NCBI GenBank assembly: GCA_951406725.2
Contig: OX597814.1
Span: 21,700,001-21,764,000, forward strand
DNA length: 64,000 nt
DNA from: Octopus vulgaris
Lineage: Eukaryota
Direction: 5' to 3'
The stretch's first letter is position 1. Every line of letters starts with the position of its first letter. A program made the position numbers and the translations under genes. Below, piece by piece: positions 2,858 through 62,703 of the stretch. The notes below the pieces were generated by a model, which was given only the letters and a program-made list of their open reading frames with translations, was not told where the DNA came from and did not search any database.

Positions 2858-4016
2858 GACATCCTTTGTGTTCTGTTTTTTTTATTTCATTTGATACATA
2901 TATCTATTTTTGTAACTTTATATGTGAATCTTCGATGTATTTCTCCAAATCACCTTCCTGGCTACATCCATCCTAGATGTATATCTATATGTATACTGCT
3001 TTAGGGTATTTTTACTTCCTTCATGTCCACTTCCATCGGCTACTTCAATCTGTCATCATAGCCGTATCTCTATATGAAGTTATTTGATGTATTGTAGGTG
3101 TCTACCTTCCTCGCTTTTTTCATTCATCTCACTTCCTTAGCTTCTCATTTTCTTGATTAGTTATGCCTTACAGTACCGAATCAATCTTTTTCTCAGTTTT
3201 TTGCCTCGCTTCTTTCATTTTCCCATGAAGAGTAGGGGCAAAGAAAAAATTATAATTTACATTCAATGATTTGATTTTACCGACGCAGTTTTCAAATAAT
3301 CAAAAAAAAAAACATTTGCAGACTGTCATAATAAGAAACAATTTATGGTAAAATGTCAAACTTTTTTAAACGAAACTAATTAAACGAATGGAAGCACTGA
3401 TTTTTCTGTTTCATTATTACGAAAGTTAATTTAGTTAAAATTTCAGCGATATTGGAGATTAACGTACCAAACTGAATACGAAATGTGTTCATAATAGAAT
3501 ACTTTCGTTCTTTAAATACGTTAATTAATATTCAATACATAACTTCCTTAAATATAAATATATATAGTTATCATCATACGAATTTGACGATTATATTATG
3601 AACCAATGTAGAAAATTTGTAAATCCTGGTAACTTTCATACGCTACAAGGTATTGAGTTCTTTTGTATTATACCAATAAAAAACTTGAATCGGATGAATG
3701 CTACATCAAAAGAGTTATTTGATAGTTACTTGAAAGAATTTAAGTGTGGTGGTACAGTAACACATAAGCATGATGGTAGCAGAGTATTTGAAAGCGTCCA
3801 TATTATCATACATAAACAATATATCCTATAATTATTTACTTTTATCATTGATTTCCTGATCTTAAAATAAAGCATAATACATACCTCATTTTACAATATA
3901 AAGCTAATTTGTCCTTTATATCCATCGATTTTCTGTTTTACGCATAGACAATTTTAAAACTTAATTTCAAATATATTCATCGCAATAAGACAACGGACAC
4001 AGTAAATATGCTTATG

Positions 4017-4228: not shown

Positions 4229-6130
4229 TATTTAATGAACATATACCAAAAATATTCAGACTCCAAACGTATTAGATAATGAAAGCGGTTCGCCATTAAT
4301 TCAGTACGCTTACATACATTATCGATATTTTTAAGGGCTTGCCGATATTTTACCATCGAATTCATATTCTTTGATACAGAGCCGATGGCTTACATTTTGA
4401 CAACTCAACGAACCACATCGTAAAATAGTGACTGCTACTATTGAGTGAGAATGATTTATAGATCCATGTGATTATTAGTTGTGAAGCTATGGACCCACAT
4501 GTAGGATTAATATATACAAATATCTCTGGTGTGTAATCTTCATCAAAAAGTGAAGCCTCTTCTTCAAAAGCTGAAGGGGTGTTATGAATATTAGATTCAT
4601 GTATTAACATGTTTCTTAGATTTTTAAGGTCTTAGATATGAACATGTATATTACAGTATTCCAGGGAAGAATATGCATATTTATAGCTAAAGTAAGAGAC
4701 TATAATGTCTTAACAATGTCACTTCGCTCATCCCTAATGAAACTCTGTGATCCCCGAGCAGGCATCCTAGCTACAACCTTATCCTATATGTAGTTACCAA
4801 AACTCATTTCCATCACTGACGAGAATATTTCAGATTAAAACTATGCATGCTATAACAATTTAATTTGTTATTCAAACCCAGTATATCTATATCAATCAAT
4901 GGGTCTTTTTTAAAGTCGGTAAAGTGCGGCTTAAGGGAGACTTAGCTCATTGAAAAACCAGATAGAAACTTCGTTTCTGTGATAGCTGTCTTCATTATGT
5001 ATTGATGGCATCCATTGCAACAATTTCATCATGGTTTTGTTCTTATAATTACCCTTTTATGATGCATTCTTAATACTTCTGAGTGTTTATCATAAAATAT
5101 ATATCCACTTGCATATATTAACCAGGTCTCACATCCATAATTAGAGAGTGTTACTAGTGTAAGTAAATCTTCATTTTCAAGTTGATGAGCAATACTGGAC
5201 TTCTCAATCAGTTAATCTGTGTAATGTTTATAACAATAAAACTTTAATAGACAAAACGATATTGCCTATGTAAACACGCTCGAGGAGATATCCATGTAAA
5301 ACTACAGCAGCACCTACATACAACACGAGCAGCAACAGTTAAGCGAAAAAGCACAAAAATGCAGAAACATAATTAAAAAAAAGGATTTTTTTATCTTGGG
5401 TTGTTTATAAAATATGAGGAAAAACATTTTGCTTTTGGAAGATATTCAATTAATATAAAAATACCTACGGTGTTTGTGTTCAATTTCTTCAGAGAATTTT
5501 TTTTATATATTTTTCTTTAATGTTATCAAATAAATCATCTATCATAGTACTTGCTATTATTACGAGAGAAATTTAGAGCCAGAAAATGTGCTATTTGAAG
5601 ATCAATCGTGACTTGGTTCTGTCAGCATTTGTAATATCGACTTCAAGTTTCTTGAGCTAAAATCAACAGTACTTTTGTATTTAGATAAACACTCGCTTGC
5701 ATAGGTTTGGTGTAAACTCAGAAAAAGAGAAATTTATGGATGTTGCTAAGCTGAGCAATTTATAAATTAACTCGAAATGATGAATGTTTGTTGTAAATGG
5801 CAAGGGTCTCTATTTCATATAATAAAATTTAAGAAGCTTATTGAGAGAGTAGATCACTAATTTAATTGTATTGATTTGTTTAGCTTTTGTCCCTCTCGTT
5901 CAAATTAAAAATCTTCCTTAGGATTTCGTTTTATTCTTCATCCTTCCACAATCGATAAAGGTTATGTCTAAAACGATTCACTCGACTCATTCACACAGAA
6001 ATTGGCATTGAGCTTTAGAAAATAACTCAATTTTAAAAAAAGAATCTGATACGTGCTGAATTGTATGAGAGAATAGTAAGTGAGCTTAGATTGTTGCAAG
6101 CCGTTTTGGATTACCGTTCGAAGAAATATT

Positions 6131-6899
6131 GTTTTCTACTATAGGCACAAGGCCTGAAATTTGAGGGAGGGAGATAGTCGATTTCATCGACCTCAGTGCG
6201 TAACTGGTACTTATGTTATCGACCCCGAAAGGATGAAAGGCAAAGTCGACCGCGGCGGAATTTGAACTCAGAACATAGCGACGGCGAAATGCCTATTTCT
6301 ATTTCTTTACTACCCACAAGGGACTAAACACAGAGAGGACAAATAAGGACAGACAAACGGATTAAGTCGATTATATCGACTCCAGTGCGTAAATGGTACT
6401 TATTTAATCGACCCTGAAAGGATGAAAGGCAAAGTCGACCTCGGCGGAATTTGAACTCACAACGTACCGGTAGACGAAATACCTATTTCTTTACTGCCTA
6501 CAAGGGGCTAAATATAGAGTAGACAAACAAGGACAGACAAACGGATTAAGTCGACTACATCGACCCCAGTGTGTAACTGGTACTTAATTTATCGACCCCG
6601 AAAGGATGAAAGGCAAAGTCAACCTCGGCGGAATTTGAACTTAGAACGTAACGGCAGACGAAATACCTATTTCGTTACTACCCACAAGGGGCTAACACAA
6701 AGAGGACAAACAAAGACAGACAAACGGATTAACTCGATTATATCGACCCCAGTGCGTAACTGGTACTTATTTAATCGACTCCGAAAGGAAGAAAGGCAAA
6801 GTCGACCTCGGCGGAATTTGAACTCAGAACGTAGCGGCAGCCGAAATACTGCTAAGCATTTCGCCCGGCGTGCTAACGATTCTGCCAGTTCGCCGCCTT
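6131..6899 (-). mobile_element. tRNA-derived SINE family A (Meta-domain-like), four-unit concatemer
   Basis: One head (GGCGGCGAACTGGCAGAATCGTTAGC), four ~185-bp units with B-box GAGTTCAAATTCC and GTCGACTTTGCCTTTCATCCTTTCGGGGTCGAT core; flanking direct repeat AAGAAATATT at 6121 and 6900. Confidence 0.9.
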
Positions 6900-7893
6900 A
6901 AGAAATATTCCTTCACCTACCCACACCACAAATGGAGGCCTCTTTACAGTGGTTCTACCTCCTTGAAATAGCAGCTAAATCTCCTTCAAATGATATCCTG
7001 CTATCTTTAAAATAGACATTGAAGACTGCAATCCTGTATGCAATATATCTACTAAAAAGACAGAGTATTTATGGTAGAAGGTCTTTTATCATACTTTTTC
7101 TCGGTCAGGGTTGGTCTGGGAATTAAACAACAACAACCACTAATGCTCTTTAGAAAAACATGACCACCATAACCTCACTTTTCACTTTCTCTCTCACTTT
7201 AGGCTTTATACTTAGTCAAAAGAAATCAATACTTCAGAATAGAACCAACTAATTTGAATTGAATTTCGTCTTAATATAGGTTGTAGCTAATGTTTGGTGT
7301 GGAAGAGACATATCGGCGGGAATGTCATTTCAATTTTATTTCGGCTAGCTTTGTACAGAGACAATAATCAGATTGGCGAATATTAAAGAGAACATGATAT
7401 GGATGTGTAGTTGTGTGCGTACAAGTGCGATTTATATAAACGTATTTGTGTGTTTGAGTATGTGTGTGTGTACGTGTGTGCGTGTTTATGTGCTTGAAAT
7501 AATTTCCACATGATCATTTGTTGAGTTGAACGACAAAGATGGGTCATGTACTATTATGAAGAATAATTGCAAGCAAGTAATTTATGAGCATGCCATATGA
7601 TTAGTTTGTATGATTTAAAAGCTAAAATGGGAGTATCAGCTGAAGAATCGATTATTCACGCTGATATAATTTTGAGTGCAAAACGCAAAATAATAGGGTC
7701 TTCCTATCTACATAGATAGATATACGATTGATTTCTTTCCGACAGCGAATTTTCGTATCTTTCACAACAATTTTAAGTTGGGTTGAACTTAAACTACTTT
7801 GGGAGGATATGAACATCACAACTAGTTTAAGAGAGTTGAGACCACTTACCATATGTTCTACGATGCCCATCATATGGTAAGAGATTGACAGAG

Positions 7894-8302
7894 GAAGGCG
7901 GCCACGCCGGACGAAATGCTTACCGGTATTTCGTCTGCCGCTACGTTCTGAGTTCAAATTCCGCGGAGGTCGACTTTGCTCTCATCCTTTCGGGGTCGAT
8001 TAAATAAGTACTAGTTACGCACTGATGTCGATATAATCGAATTAATCCGTTTGTCTGTCCTTGTTTGTCCTCTCTGTGTTTAGCCCCTGTGGGTAGTAAA
8101 GAAATAGGTATTTTGTCTGCTGTTAAGTTCTGAGTTCAAATTCCGCCGGAGTCGACTTTGCCATTCATCCTTTCGGGGTCGATAAATTAAGTACCAGTTA
8201 CGCACTGGGGTCGATGTAATCGATTTAATCCCTTTTTCTGTCCTTGTTTGTCTCCTCTATGTTTAGCTTCTTGTTGGCAATAAAGAAATAAGAAATAAGA
8301 AA
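7894..8302 (+). mobile_element. SINE family A dimer
   Basis: Two units, (AGAAATA)n tail, 16-bp TSD TAAGAGATTGACAGAG at 7878-7893 and 8303-8318. Confidence 0.9.
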
Positions 8303-8579
8303 TAAGAGATTGACAGAGTTCAGCAATATATAGTAAGAGGTAGGCATGCAGCAAACGAATTAGGTAGAAGTTACTCTCGGTCATTTAACATGTTCAGTGA
8401 AGTATGAGACATTTTAGCACAGCAGTTTTGGCACCGCTGATTTGGTGTCGCTGATTCGACACTGATTTCTTTTACATCAAACATTTTAATCCTTTAAGAC
8501 TAGAGTAGCCCTGTGGTCAGTCAGTCCAAAAGTTCCTTCGTGTTTGTGTTTCGGGCAAGTCCACCATCCTTCACCGGCT

Positions 8580-8735
8580 TGCCATGCCTGTCATTTTTGC
8601 TACCTGAGTGGACTACAGCAATGTGAAATGAAGTGTCTTACGCAAGACCACAACAAATTGCCAGGTCCAGGAATCGAAACCACTATCTTACGATCATAAG
8701 TCCATCACCTCTAGTTACTAAACGATGCGCCTTCA
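8580..8735 (-). mobile_element. SINE family E fragment
   Basis: Reverse similarity to the copy at 46186-46435 (tRNA-like head, ...CACTTCATTTCAC...). Confidence 0.6.
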
Positions 8736-9313
8736 CGGACGTTTTAATGTTCCGTTTTAATGTTTCTCCGGTTCAAATTTTCTTTTGTTCTCCTCATGTC
8801 TCCTTCCTTTTCTCCCTCCCTCTCTCTCCTTCTCCCTCTCTTCCTCTCTTTCTCAATTTGTGTGTGTGATCATCTAGGTATATTTACATTTATATGTAAT
8901 GTCTCTTTCTTACCTCTGTCTGTCTCTTTTACCCTCTCTGTATGTGTATTTCTGCGTGGTGTGAGTGTGCTGTGTGATGTGTGCGTGTATTTTTTTGTCT
9001 CCATTGCCAAAAACTTCTGTTGCCAAAACAGTTGAATGTCCAGTCAGCCATGACAATTCGTCAGCGTCTGAACAGCAGCGCCCAGCTTTCTCATTCCACT
9101 GTGGGAGGCGATGAAACTTTCCCATAATGTCGGTTGATGTTGAAGAAATAATTCCTCTGATGGGCTTTGTTCTCCGTGTTCCTGAAAAATATATAATAAA
9201 ATAATTAATTATCTCATAACTAGTATTCAATATATGTACTTTTCTGTAATTATTTATATATTGATTTCAAATTTTGGCAAAAGGACAGCAATTTCGGGTA
9301 AGGTGGTAAAACC

Positions 9314-11224: not shown

Positions 11225-11305
11225 AATGACAATAATAATCCTCCTCCTCCTCATCATCATCATTATTATTATTGTTGTTGTTGTTATTATTATTATCATT
11301 ATTAT
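11078..11305. repeat. (TAA)n/(TAT)n microsatellite
   Basis: Direct inspection. Confidence 0.95.
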
Positions 11306-11515
11306 AAGGCAGCAAAATGGCAGAATCGTTAGCACATCGGGCGAAATGCTTAGCAGCATTTTGTCTGCCACTGCGTTCTGAGTTCAAATTCCGGCGAGGT
11401 CAACTTTGCCTTTCATCCTTTCGGGGTCGATAAATTAAGTACCAATGAAACACTGGGGTCGATGTAATCGACTTAAGCCCCTCCCTCAAGCTGCCCTTGT
11501 GGCAAAAATTTGAAA
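11306..11515 (+). mobile_element. SINE family A monomer (alternative tail)
   Basis: Head TGGCAGAATCGTTAGC, B-box, Meta-like core; a second, older copy follows at about 11616-11822. Confidence 0.85.
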
Positions 11516-11540
11516 TCATTATGATTATTATTATTATTAT

Positions 11541-11615
<75 letters not shown>

Positions 11616-11846
11616 AGCGGTGCGCTGGCAGAATCGTTAGCGCGCAGGTAAAATAGTTAGCGGCATTTCGTCCATCTTTACATTCTGATTTCAAATGCCG
11701 TCGATGTCGACTTTACATTTCCTTCGTTTGGGGTCGACAAAATAAGTACCAGTTAAGCACTGGGATGCATGTAATCGACTTTGCCCCCTGCTCCGAAGAT
11801 GCAAGCCTTGTGTTAAAATTTGAAATCATCATCATCATCATCTTCA

Positions 11847-11905
<59 letters not shown>

Positions 11906-14892: not shown

Positions 14893-15232
14893 ACCAAAGG
14901 TTACTTAACAAATACCCATAGCAATGAGTTCACGTATATGCATAAAGTCTTCTTTCAGAAGAAGAAATATTTCCAAGAGCCGAGGACATGTATAACCAGG
15001 TACACGCTCAAATCTAATGCAATAGATGCATTGTATACTTAATGAATATTACATTAGCTTCAAATGCTAGGCTAGAACTTTATTATGGGCATAGAGTAGT
15101 CAAGAGCATAATTAATGTAATGTAGGAAGGAAATGCCAGAAGAGAAGAAAAGAGGAAGGAAAGAAGAAAGGAAAGAGGAAAGATGGAAAGAAGAGAAAGA
15201 AGGAGGGGAAGAAATAAATTAATGATAAACAA
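14893..15232 (+). repeat. 340-bp direct repeat, copy 1
   Basis: Near-identical to 16045-16384; four substitutions seen by eye. Confidence 0.95.
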
Positions 15233-16044: not shown

Positions 16045-16384
16045 ACCAAAGGTTACTTAACAAATACTCATAGCAATGAGTTCACGTATATGCATAAAGT
16101 CTTCTTTCAGAAGAAGAAATATTTCCAAGAGCCGAGGACATGTATAACCAGGTACACGCTCAAATCTAATGCAATAGGTGCATTGTTTACTTAATGAATA
16201 TTACATTAGCTTCAAATGCTAGGCTAGAACTTTATTATGGGCATAGAGTAGTCAAGAGCATAATTAATGTAATGTAGGAAGGAAATGCCAGAAGAGAAGA
16301 AAAGAGGAAGGAAAGAAGAAAGGAAAGAGGAAAGATGGAAAGAAGAGAAAGAAGGAGGGGAAGAAATAAATTAATAATAAACAA
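16045..16384 (+). repeat. 340-bp direct repeat, copy 2
   Basis: Near-identical to 14893-15232. Confidence 0.95.
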
Positions 16385-21950: not shown

Positions 21951-22281
21951 ATCTATTTCTGAAATATTCATCACATTACCTCATGTGTGTTCTTTTCTTT
22001 AAATGTTCCCGCGACATTTAAAACAAAACTATTGTGAGCCAGTATAAATTTAAATAAAGAAGTATTATTACCGTTATTAATGATAATAATAAGGTGGCTA
22101 GCAAGTTTACACCCTTACAGGCAAAATATAAGCTAAATTTAGATTCAGTAGGGTACTTAAATACCACTTGCTATAATCGAAGACATCGCTCGAAAATCAC
22201 CAGTAACTCACTATTAGGGCCGCAAGATGGTGGCACACTCGGAGGTCGACAGTAAATGGCAAAGGGTGATAATCTCCTATT

Positions 22282-22514
22282 ATTTCTTTACTACCTACAA
22301 GGGGCTAAACACATAGCGGGACAAACAAGGACAGACAAACGGATTAAGTCGATTACATCGACCTCAGTGCGTAACTGGTACTTAATTTATAGACCCCGAA
22401 AGGATGAAAGGCAAAGTCGACCTCGGCGTAATTTGAACTCAGAACGTAACGGCAGACGAAATACGGCTACGCATTTCGCCCGGCGTGCGAACGTTTCTGC
22501 CAGCTCGCCGCTTT
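22282..22514 (-). mobile_element. SINE family A monomer (tail type 1)
   Basis: Full head and core; 13-bp TSD ATAATCTCCTATT at 22269 and 22515. Confidence 0.9.
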
Positions 22515-42812: not shown

Positions 42813-44029
42813 TGTGTACTAGGCTTACAAAGAATAATTCCTGCGGTCACTTTTTTCGACTAAAACCCTTGCAGTCAAATGACTGAAACAAGTAATAGAA
42901 TAAAAGAATTCAATTGAACAAAGCCGAATATATAACACCGCCTGTACTTATAGCATTCGCTATAAGGTGGGAGGTGGGAGTGGAGGAGGTGAGGAGGAGG
43001 CGGAGGAGGGGAAGTGGAGGTGGAGGAGGTGAGGTGGAGGAGGTGAGGAGGAGGAGAGTAGTTTGGTTGTTGTCGTGGTGTGGAACACGGCTCAGGACTA
43101 ACCCGAGATGGCAAGGTGATAAAACTAAATCGATTTTAGATCATGGAGAAGCAACAGGCACAAGAGTTAGATTGAAGTCTTTTTATACCAGGTTCAAGTC
43201 ACCAACTTTTTGTCTCTTAACAGGTATTTCAGTTGTCAATTTGCTCGCGTAATTACGGTTTCGTTAAAGGCATTTAGCGAATCAGAACTGAATCACAGAT
43301 CGATATTGATTTTTTTTTTTTTAACATTGGATTAAGATCTATTTTTTGTAAATGAAAGTTGTTGCCGAAAGATGTATTACTGTTATTTTATATACCCCCT
43401 AGTGAAACAATGCAAAATGACTTTTTAATCGACTCGGCCGATGACTCAAATTAGTGCAATTATTCTAATTATTCTGAAATTTTGTTGCCTCTGACCACCC
43501 CACCACTCTGTAACGGATTAATATTGATTTCCAATTTTGGCACAATACCACGCATTTTGAGGTGGGGAAACGGAGAATATGGTCGATTAAATCGAAAACA
43601 ATACTTGATTGATATTTTATCGACTGCAAAAGGATAAAATGCAGTAAGAGCTGAACTCAGGAAAAGAATTGGCAAGAGAGTAGTCTTGAATTTTTAAGAA
43701 AGGTACATAGGATATTAAAACGTTCATACTTTTTTTCTACCCAATGCAAAAGCGAACTCAGTAAAATGAAACGGGTGTGATTGCAGTTTATCCTTGACTT
43801 ACTGTGAGTTTAATTCTGGCTTTATGAATTTCTCATATCGCAACAAATTTATATGCAGCTGGAATAGTAAGACGTCAGATGTTGGGGAATCTCTCAAGAT
43901 GTATAGTTACATACTTTTCTATTCTGAGCTTAAATCTCAAAGAGTTCGACTTCTTGCGGAGTCGATAAAATAAATATCTGCCAAAAACGATGATCTATGT
44001 AACTGACTGGGTACTTCCTAAAAATATTG

Positions 44030-44428
44030 GTTTTCAATCTTGGCACAAGGCCAGCAATTTCGGGGAAGTGAGTAAGTCGGTTACATCGACTCCCAGTGCT
44101 AGATTAGTACTTATTTTATCGACGTCGAAAGGATGAAAAGCAAAGTTGACCCCAGCAGTATTTGAACCCAGAACGTAAAGACGGACGAAATACCTATTTC
44201 TTTGCTACCCACAAGGGGCTAAACACAGAGAGGACAAACAAGGACAGACAAACGGATTCAGTCGATTATATCGACCCCAGTGCGTAACTGGTACTTATTT
44301 AATCGACTCCGAAAGGATGAAAGACAAAGTCGACCTCGGCGAAATTTAAACTCAGAACGCAGCGGCAGACGAAATACCGCTAAGCATTTTGCACGGTGTA
44401 CTAACGATTCTGTGGCAGCTTACCGCTT
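44030..44428 (-). mobile_element. SINE family A dimer (tail-1 unit plus tail-2 unit)
   Basis: Same unit junction as at 6131-6899. Confidence 0.85.
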
Positions 44429-44629
44429 TACTCCCTAAAAATGTTGATCTTCTTTGTTTTCTTAATCATAACACTTTATTTCACGTCACTCCAGTCTACT
44501 CAGCTATCAAAAGTGAGTAATCCTGCAATGGACTGGCGTCCTGTCCAGGTGGGGATATCACATGCTATGGAAACCGGGAAACCAGCCCTTATGAGTCGGA
44601 ATGACTCGAAAAGGAAACGCTAAACATGT

Positions 44630-44965
44630 GAAGGTACATAGCTCGGTTGTTAGAGCGTCGGGCTCACAATCATGAGGTAGTGAGTTCGATTCTTCCCAGA
44701 CCGGGCTGTGTGTTGTGTTCTTGAGCAAAACACTTTATTTCAAGTTGCTCCAGTTCTCTCAACTGTAGACATGAGTTGCGACGTCACTGGTGCCAAGTGG
44801 TATTGGCATTTGCCTCTCTCTTGGATAATATCAGTGACGTGGAGAGGGGAAACTGGTATGCATGGGAGACTGTTGGTCTTCCATAAACAATCTTGCCCGG
44901 ACTTGTACCTCGGAGGGGAAATTTCTAAGTGCAATCCCATGGTCATTCATGACCGAAAGCGGTCT
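44630..44965 (+). mobile_element. SINE family D
   Basis: Homologous to 25121-25457. Confidence 0.8.
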
Positions 44966-45859: not shown

Positions 45860-46065
45860 AGTGGCAAGCTTGCAGAATCGTTAGTACGCGGGACAAATAA
45901 CTTAACGACGTTTCGTCCAACTTTATATTCTGTGTTCGAATTCCTCCGAGGCTGTCTTTGCCTTTTATCCTTTTGTAAATGTTGATGAAATAAGCACTAG
46001 GTGAGCACTGAGGTCGATGTAACTGATTAGCCCGTTCCCCCAAATTTCAGGCCTTGTGCCTATAG
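45860..46065 (+). mobile_element. SINE family A, old monomer
   Basis: GCAGAATCGTTAG head, degenerate core, tail AATTTCAGGCCTTGTGCC. Confidence 0.7.
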
Positions 46066-46185
46066 TAAAAATAATTTTGTGTCTGAGAAATTCGATTTCC
46101 CCATCCCACCCCAACCTTTCCTTAATTTGTAGCCTTATGCGTTTGTGGTAAATTATTATTATTGTTATTATTATTATTATTATTG

Positions 46186-51834: not shown

Positions 51835-51904
51835 TATTAAATAAGTTGGTTGTACTTCTACGATATACAAAATATTTTAACCATATTTTCATACAATTCC
51901 TAAT

Positions 51905-52123
51905 AATGATTTCAAATTTTGGCACAAGGCCAGCAATTTGGGGGCGGGAGTAAGTCGATTGCATCGATCCCCAGAACACAACTGGTACTTATTTTATCGA
52001 CCCCGAAAAGATGAAAGGTAAAAATCGACCGCGATAGGATTTGAACCCAGAACGTGGATGATGGACGAAATGCCGCTAAGCATTCTGCCCGGCGTGCTAA
52101 TGATTCTGCCAGCTCGCCGCCTT
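51905..52123 (-). mobile_element. SINE family A monomer (tail type 2)
   Basis: Head, core and imperfect TSD TACAA.TC.TAATAAT. Confidence 0.85.
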
Positions 52124-61896: not shown

Positions 61897-62703
61897 CATC
61901 ATCATCATCATTTAGCGTCCGTTCTCCATGCTAGCATGGGTTGGACAGTTCAACTGGGGTCTGTGAAGCTGGAAGGCTTCATCAGGCCCAGTCAGATCTG
62001 GCAGTGTTTCTACGGCTGAATGCCCTTCCTAACGCCAACCACTCCGTGAGTGTAGTGGGTGCTTTTTACGTGCCACCCGCACAGGTGCCAGACAGAGCTG
62101 GCAAACGGCCACGAACGGATGGTGCTTTTACGTGTCACCGGTACGGGGCCAGTCGAGGCTGGCAACGGACACGACGGATGGTGCTTTTACGTGCCACCAA
62201 CACGGGGGCCAGACAGAGCTGGCAAACGGCCACGAACGGATGTTGCTTTTACGTGTCACCGGTACGGGGCCAGGCGAGGCTGGCAACGGACACGAGCGGA
62301 TGGTGCTTTTACGTGCCACCAACACGGGGGCCAGACAGAGCTGGCAAACGGCCACGAAACGGATGGTGCTTTTACGTGTCCCCGGCACGGGGGCCAGGCG
62401 AGGCTGGCAACGGACACGAACGGATGGTGCTTTTACATGTCACCGACATGGGGGCCAGACAGGGCTGGCAAACGGCCACAAACGGATGGTGCTTTTACGT
62501 GTCACCGGCACGGGGGCCAGACAGAGCTGGCAAACGGCCACAAATGGATGGTGCTTTTACGTGTCACCGGCACGGGGGCCAGGCCAGGCTGGCAACGAAC
62601 ACGAACGGATGGTGCTTTTACGTGCCACCGACACGGGGGCCAGACAGGGCTGGCAAACGGCTACGAACAGATGGTGCTTTTACGTGTCATCTGCATGGGG
62701 GCC
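61897..62703 (-). mobile_element. SINE-like retroelement with (GAT)n tail carrying a ~61-bp VNTR (62059-62703, ~10.5 units)
   Basis: Reverse-strand end GGACGCTAAATGATGATG; unit GTGCTTTTACGTGYCACCGGCACGGGGGCCAG...CTGGCAA..GG.CACGAACGGATG. Confidence 0.75.

Follow-up and report, generated by a model that had tools for sequence, protein, structure and literature searches.

A SINE family of Octopus vulgaris inserts into its own copies at fixed positions that are likely chosen by the end of its RNA

A family of short interspersed elements (SINEs) with a tRNA-like head forms tandem arrays in the genome of Octopus vulgaris, and copies with one type of tail, tail-1, have inserted into DNA copies of their own family at 64 loci, a minority of all loci. 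The junction lies at one of two fixed bases of the head, depending on the tail variant of the incoming element, and pairing of the RNA end with the target likely chooses the site. In the explanation that we favor, and to which we give slightly better than even credence, young tail-1 copies insert at one exact base of older copies of their own family through RNA-end pairing, the 5' end is joined by homology, and some of the arrays grow later in place.

Three arrays were found in the window, the whole stretch of 64,000 nucleotides that was analyzed. As the initial annotation had proposed, a single head is followed by repeated bodies in each: in arrays A, B, and C alike, the head is joined by units of 184 bp that comprise body and tail, and one duplication encloses the whole (Table 1). 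The single target site duplication described around arrays A and B was recovered, and array C is likewise enclosed. The head is predicted to fold into a 13-bp hairpin, and we number bases from the one that opens its 3' arm, position 0. At all five junctions in the window the end of tail-1 adjoins this base of the predicted fold; the fold of the head hairpin region had a z of -1.9, with 6 of 200 shuffles equally good. The junctions are at 6667/6668, 6483/6484, and 6293/6300 in array A (negative strand), the third with one additional GAAATA, at 8106/8107 in array B (7894-8302, positive strand), and at 44194/44195 in array C (44030-44428, negative strand). About 20 bases are gone from the head of array B, the A-box-like part among them, a deletion on which the initial annotation was silent. 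The final tails of arrays A and C differ from the inner tails, as had been noted, but they are not the same tail: that of array A is tail-2a, and that of array C is the older variant tail-2b.

Table 1. Arrays and single copies of the SINE family in the window
Feature	Position	Strand	Remark
Array A target site duplication, tail-end copy, 10 bp	6121..6130		identical to 6900-6909 (10/10)
Array A last unit, body + tail-2a, presumed older target copy	6131..6293	-	C at +2 = old-copy allele
Additional GAAATA tail repeat, array A third junction	6294..6299	-	
Array A unit 3, body + tail-1	6300..6483	-	
Array A unit 2, body + tail-1, body subtype differs from units 1 and 3	6484..6667	-	
Array A unit 1, body (B-box-like motif) + tail-1	6668..6850	-	
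Array A single head: A-box-like motif, hairpin 5' arm + loop	6851..6899	-	
Array A target site duplication, head-end copy	6900..6909		
Array B target site duplication, head end, 16 bp (16/16)	7878..7893		
Array B head, internal deletion of ~20 bases	7894..7924	+	
Array B unit 1, body + tail-1 (TAGT variant)	7925..8106	+	
Array B unit 2, body + tail-1 (CAAT variant), AAGAAAT repeats at end	8107..8302	+	
Tail-2 monomer inside ATT microsatellite	11308..11522	+	
Old tail-2b monomer	11617..11832	+	
Tail-1 monomer, same SINE family, own duplication	22281..22511	-	
Array B target site duplication, tail end	8303..8318		
Array C target site duplication, tail end, 16/18 bp match	44012..44029		
Array C last unit, diverged body + old tail-2b	44030..44194	-	
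Array C unit 1, young body + tail-1	44195..44378	-	
Array C head, old-type alleles T at -29, A at -12	44379..44428	-	
Array C target site duplication, head end	44429..44446		
Old tail-2a monomer	45863..46071	+	
Old tail-2b monomer	51903..52121	-	

The motifs of head and body were spotted by eye, and the names A-box and B-box are our assumption. ARAGORN predicted no tRNA gene, and Rfam returned no tRNA match; the initial annotation's reading of the hairpin as a tRNA anticodon arm was not confirmed. For ribozymes, an Rfam scan of window positions 6000-8400 gave only three chance-level matches (E of 0.69-5). In four DNA sequencing runs assembled over 5800-8700, contigs from the flanks entered arrays A and B at both ends in 4/4; no contig of these runs spanned either array, paralogues having swamped the contigs. 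The junction itself (window 6655-6680 and all others) folds as a small hairpin in which GAAAT of the tail pairs with ATTTC, like the head hairpin. Its energy is weak (z = -0.8), and such a mini-hairpin might have given rise to the first junction.

Besides the five monomers of Table 1, the window contains an orphan tail-2b end (9258-9302) and a strongly decayed copy of the family (43520-43643). Two tail-2 monomers stand between ATT, TAC, and ATT microsatellites at 11262-11905, and tail-2 copies are frequently found within ATT runs. Tails 1 and 2 both carry a hairpin with a CTTGT loop. The start of a tRNA-like repeat head from a different family is present at 44620-44700. Purine-rich arrays at 15138-15214 are repeated 1,152 bases away at 16290-16366, which suggests a local duplication, and a GC-rich minisatellite with 10.5 copies of a 62-bp unit occupies 62058-62703.

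The exact 22-mer of the junction had 30,336 matches in the 2.8-Gb genome, and its reversed pattern had none; tail-1 ends had 82,469 exact matches. The initial annotation had placed all junctions at one fixed nucleotide. This held for the window and for these genome-wide matches, but a second fixed junction exists 33 bases upstream, at -33, with 1,718 exact matches. Tail-2 followed within 25 bases by a body was found in 14 cases in the genome, at mixed positions. Unselected DNA, 450 kb in all, contained 65 elements, 11 of which were tail-1 composites; of its 12 tail-1 joins, 9 lay at 0 or +1 and the other 3 at -33. A larger sample enriched for the junction, 119 composites, had 187 joins: 177 at 0 or +1, 8 at -33, and one each at +3 and -31. 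For these and the following counts, loci L031-L044, which had been fetched for tail-2 joins, were excluded wherever alleles, ages, or sharing were scored. Most other loci had been chosen by a junction or tail motif, and frequencies were therefore taken from L100-L144, or from L001-L030 together with these and the window.

The site of joining depended on the tail variant. At loci not picked by junction, TAGT tails gave 24 joins at position 0, 16 flanks starting with GG, and 6 others, whereas CAAT tails gave none at position 0, 4 at -33, and 10 others. CAAT tails terminate in AAGAAAT repeats, and the head at -33 reads AGAAAC. The sample included 29 GG-type insertions in unique DNA, and in 11 of them a duplication could be read; its upstream copy matched GGTAT at 4-5 of 5 bases in 8 of the 11. 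In 4 of the 11, GGTAT was matched more closely by the 3' copy than by the upstream one, as is expected if the priming site received letters copied from the RNA. Because one tail variant joins at -33 and the sites in unique DNA resemble GGTAT, the hairpin is not the cause of the junction. Thus, the initial annotation located the junction correctly, by the fold, at the edge of the hairpin loop, but the site is set by the incoming 3' end and not by the loop.

Position 0 accounts for 3%, 10%, 20%, and 51% of genomic GGTAT-type 5-, 6-, 7-, and 8-mers, respectively (450 kb), and insertions outside SINEs mostly had 4-5 matching bases. In comparison, 28 of 53 G-type tail-1 ends were at the junction, a share partly inflated by later duplication. 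We rejected short passive microhomology as the full cause; the k-mer shares are too low, and longer pairing or re-copying is therefore needed. Read-through RNA with longer pairing would close this gap. The head-body-tail-body consensus contains no run of four Ts, and L052 provides an example of a read-through copy, which ends at +29 of the second unit inside a duplication matching at 21/22 bp; it was the only one of 11 3'-truncated last units with a clear duplication. Old tail-2b units behind a junction carried T at +2 in 95/100 cases and monomers in 18/100 (by eye, among the matches listed). A tail-1-type start was present in 26/100 such units among the matches listed, as opposed to 38/1,297 monomers in a by-eye count. 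These two biases may reflect target choice or overwriting, which are indistinguishable here.

Insertion into genomic copies left direct traces at the two-headed loci, 64 of which carried, exactly, an old head, a duplication starting from the junction, and a new head; the control yielded none. The old head extends 12-20 bases past position 0, and the target duplications span 13-18 bp. In 16 of the 20 fetched loci the sequence leads on into tail-1 and then a junction at 0; the other four do not fit, one having a -33 junction, one a plain tail, and two tail-2. Alleles at +11 to +13 were concordant between the duplicated copies in 37/48 cases versus 29.7 after shuffling (P = 0.005). A head remnant was found upstream of 6/119 arrays and of 0/162 monomers (P = 0.005), and 43 head duplications were found near -33. 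At four loci (L178, L190, L191, and L174), insertions into heads have target duplications of ~50-150 bases, which suggests second-strand joining steered by homology. Tandem repeats consisting of head pieces only, with units of 23-69 bp (C13:69036075-69036259, C15:52495167-52495522, and C30:10202970-10203087), are apparently derived from two-headed loci.

The last units of arrays were older than the others. Their bodies diverged by 7.7% when followed by tail-2a (n = 43) and by 14.5% when followed by tail-2b (n = 14), as opposed to 3.8-4.3% for first and inner units, and the first unit was less diverged than the last in 65/94 arrays. The last units fall into three tail classes, and none of 2,211 pairs of last tail-2 units shared at least three rare alleles. 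In dimers, the first and last unit shared a rare allele in 3/76 cases versus 2.6 after shuffling, and seamless dimers, searched where the first unit meets the last, hid no duplication above chance. Since the older last units are mutually unrelated and the units of a dimer are not copies of each other, a single ancestral dimeric master and a rolling circle from RNA cut in the loop, both of which had been considered earlier, are excluded as the origin of the arrays. The claim that tail-1 copies insert into heads of their own family was, in contrast, borne out by the 64 duplication loci and by these unrelated, older last units.

About 95% of the arrays have a single head and no inner duplication. 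If the target had supplied this head, it should be as old as the last unit. Instead, its young age matched that of the first unit, even where the last unit is old. Head divergence in seamless arrays with an old last unit was 7.7-10.9%, compared with 15.3-19.1% in tail-2b monomers, and divergence of head and last unit correlated with a rho of 0.07 (n = 94), as opposed to 0.56 within monomers. T at -29 was found in 20/57 array heads versus 38/47 tail-2 monomers; the comparison with tail-1 monomers (7/36) gave P = 0.16. Old head alleles were kept in L174 and array C. Young heads count against simple annealing, because annealing should retain the old head, and a seamless, R2-like 5' junction is therefore something that we infer. 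The best 12-mer of the enclosing duplication scored 9.93 in arrays with an old last unit (n = 29) and 9.05 in old monomers (n = 40; P = 0.038), two groups that are not age-matched (11.3% versus 14.7%); young monomers, at 10.03, were similar to the arrays. Re-copying and template jumping account for young heads and young-looking duplications at least as well as homologous joining does.

The arrays did not always gain one insertion per unit, as had been assumed. Units diverged by 7.1% within arrays and by 10.0% between arrays, and neighbors shared at least two rare alleles in 16/43 arrays of at least three units, as opposed to 0.2% of between-array pairs. Near-identical neighbors, within 2% of each other, made up 16/151 pairs. 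In the mosaic ladders of L081, L069, L060, and L082, an inner unit combines the 5' part of its downstream neighbor with the 3' part of its upstream neighbor, an arrangement characteristic of unequal exchange or slippage. Judging by the sharing in these 16/43, long arrays were enlarged in part by later duplication in place. In array A no such sharing between neighbors is seen and the units are of different subtypes; it therefore looks like an array of serial or mixed origin. Sampled tail-1 arrays had at most six units. Tail-2a arrays of seven (L041 and L040, C28) and four (L038, C24) near-identical units, each with a private junction, are cases of growth in place without tail-1, and at L136 (~3280-3440, negative strand) the last 55 bases of tail-1 are tandemly repeated alone.

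The initial annotation called for a LINE with the 3' end of tail-1, and a related end was found. Orphan tail-1-like ends proved to belong to 5'-truncated LINEs within TATC repeats, with RVT_1 (E of 7e-12) and zf-RVT (E of 4e-8) domains in the upstream frames and zf-RVT proteins as neighbors in the protein atlas. Tail-1 matched five LINE ends at 40-43 of 51-53 bases (~80%), above 200 shuffles each, whereas tail-2 scored within its shuffles. The exact tail-1 stem, however, was carried by no LINE in the genome search (0 matches), and the LINE copies lie in TATC repeats and not in SINE heads, so that the targets of LINE and SINE differ. The order of its domains suggests a putative L1/Tx1 affinity of the LINE. 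Members of this LINE family in (TATC)n are at L113:4503-5465, L197, L198, and L058:3370-3560, with 1,798 candidates at first look, and the copies are frequently head-to-tail with the repeat in between.

Under the favored explanation, tail-1 RNA would extend past its tail into GGUAU(UUCG...), pair with nicked DNA, and prime reverse transcription by an enzyme that probably comes from an L1/Tx1-type LINE. The joins counted above show the junction following the tail variant, with the second variant directed to -33, and the loci with a 13-18-bp duplication from the junction, a minority, show that DNA copies were hit. The RNA would bear the junction letters either by ending there or by reading through an earlier array, and the RNA of each array would then match every member of the family and close a feedback loop. 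In the ~95% of arrays that lack an inner duplication, the weakest step of the scheme, the cDNA would anneal to the target head and its own sequence would prevail, leaving no second head. Unequal exchange or slippage later added the mosaic units, as the sequence pattern of the ladders shows. A bolder version is a homing SINE, in which read-through RNA would have a match to either flank of the target site, the head upstream and the body downstream. A 184-base unit would then be written in seamlessly, as by a retrohoming intron, each new array would be a new guide, and the site of the LINE enzyme would be programmed by the RNA 3' end and not by its endonuclease alone; we offer this version tentatively, as a conjecture that we would sooner doubt than assert.

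Several other origins were weighed against homologous joining. Rare self-insertion may instead produce two-headed loci. A read-through RNA of head, tail-1 unit, and old unit would start at the young inner head of such a locus and be copied whole elsewhere, so that the seamless arrays are a second generation. Such re-copying accounts for the young heads and the young look of the enclosing duplications; two-headed loci exist, the consensus is without a four-T terminator, and L052 is a known read-through copy. But the absence of a common source signature in all 2,211 pairs of last units means that re-copying would require many hundreds of source loci contributing about equally, while two-headed loci make up only ~5% of arrays. 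It would also need extinct-looking tail-2b ends to be used again, and it is at odds with the old heads of L174 and array C. We regard it as unlikely, if far from negligible. Homologous joining is ranked first because the last units resemble a random draw of genomic copies, targeting of DNA was observed, some old heads were kept, and ~60 bases of cDNA homology lie beside the nick. Both explanations involve self-targeting at a position dictated by the RNA end, and that they are jointly right on this point we hold with considerable confidence.

The single enclosing duplication, young head, and unrelated units would also follow if the enzyme began copying a SINE RNA at a new genomic site and then jumped to the matching 3' end of a tail-1 RNA, one such event producing a one-headed array in which 3'-end pairing likewise fixes the position. 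Old tail-2b copies, 14.5% diverged, would then have to be templates in the form of RNA, and roughly every second event (28/53 tails) would have to include a jump. This scheme leaves the two-headed loci unexplained and is hard to reconcile with tail-2 being unlike the LINE end that tail-1 shares; we consider it distinctly improbable. Descent of all arrays from one dimer master by unequal crossing over is very improbable given the mutually unrelated last units of three tail classes, the second junction at -33, and the two-headed loci. It survives only as a growth step, in the mosaic ladders and the in-place duplication of 16/43 long arrays, although the junction letters may well go back to one founder. 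Scarcely any credence, and less than for a master, is left for RNA that is cut in the hairpin loop, circularized, and reverse transcribed as a rolling circle. The junction is at the loop edge and some arrays have near-identical neighbors (16/151 pairs within 2%), but these neighbors are mosaics of the flanking units, dimer units did not come from one template (3/76 versus 2.6), the last tails differ, the -33 junction is off the loop, and no ribozyme family was matched in the Rfam scan beyond the three chance-level matches.

By the features that SINEBase uses for tRNA SINEs, the element is short and interspersed in well over the 100 copies asked for (a ~230-bp monomer; 82,469 tail-1 ends), has target site duplications, and shares its 3' end with a partner LINE for tail-1 but not for tail-2. 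As in SINEU-type elements, more than 20% of copies sit at one repeat site (28/53, partly inflated by later duplication), but LINE and SINE do not have the same target. Neither the self-cleaving ribozyme (Rfam, window 6000-8400) nor the single-template units of circular-RNA retroelements were found, nor the shared diagnostic changes in second monomers that mark a dimeric master (0/2,211). Tandem units shorter than the SINE that grow in place, typical of SINE-derived satellites, are present (184 versus ~230 bp; 16/43). The SINE family itself may well be catalogued already. Ohshima and Okada reportedly described the octopus tRNA SINEs OK, OR1, and OR2 in 1994, and the body resembles what we take to be a Deu/Nin domain. 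We found no description of this junction, or of a SINE targeting its own head via its tail, in the literature searched, with subscription journals, Repbase, and Dfam outside its scope.

The closest parallels are partial. In crocodilians, SINEU is moved by Tx1-Mar to a fixed Mariner site chosen by the endonuclease, its tandem copies sandwich a duplication, and other Tx1 families target microsatellites (PMC4494074). The octopus SINE is similar in its fixed site within an abundant repeat, its tandem copies from sequential insertion, and its putative Tx1-type partner, and its LINE lies in microsatellites as those other families do. Unlike SINEU as described there, it targets its own family at a site that varies with the tail, and ~95% of its arrays lack an inner duplication or second head. 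For R2, RNA matching the 28S target past the 3' end raises the accuracy and efficiency of priming, and the form of the 5' junction is connected with target sequence that the RNA carries upstream (PMC6795142). Target-matching read-through RNA, as proposed here, would aid priming in a like manner. R2, however, moves autonomously and has a ribozyme and an endonuclease of strict site specificity (PMC6795142), whereas the octopus SINE is non-autonomous, also lands in unique DNA, and targets itself.

The TSD-(SINE)n-TSD arrays of the blood clam likewise have one complete head, units cut at the same head position, and one enclosing duplication (PMC11481361). Their first and inner tails are truncated and the last is complete, a pattern of internal duplication, with 64 elements in long arrays and unequal recombination given as the process (PMC11481361); in octopus, the inner units keep full tails, another subfamily often supplies the last unit, and there are >30,000 junctions. 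Squamate SINE-derived satellites resemble the octopus arrays in that their units fall short of full SINE length, in their leading and trailing monomers, and in growth by unequal recombination, and insertion at the same locus is mentioned there as possible (PMC10702118). The part of that account consulted contained no fixed tail-to-head junction or TSD analysis (PMC10702118), and the octopus arrays are, unlike those satellites, short (2-6 units sampled) and dispersed. A recent octopus repeat annotation reports active L1-Tx1 families and many unclassified SINEs, and the portion of its text consulted has no mention of this array structure (PMC13282606).

The arrays offer tens of thousands of natural events that bear on two open questions of non-LTR retrotransposition. 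One is the role of RNA-DNA pairing relative to the endonuclease in the choice of site, for which two tail variants with two exact sites are available, and the other is how the 5' end is joined where the cDNA is homologous to the upstream target. A SINE that exploits its own dead copies follows a safe-harbor strategy, and its arrays tie retrotransposition to the birth of minisatellites and explain why this family would resist annotation. A LINE enzyme aimed by RNA would, if true, be of interest for gene insertion tools. If priming from the RNA end is true, the family would be an RNA-aimed, self-feeding retroposon.
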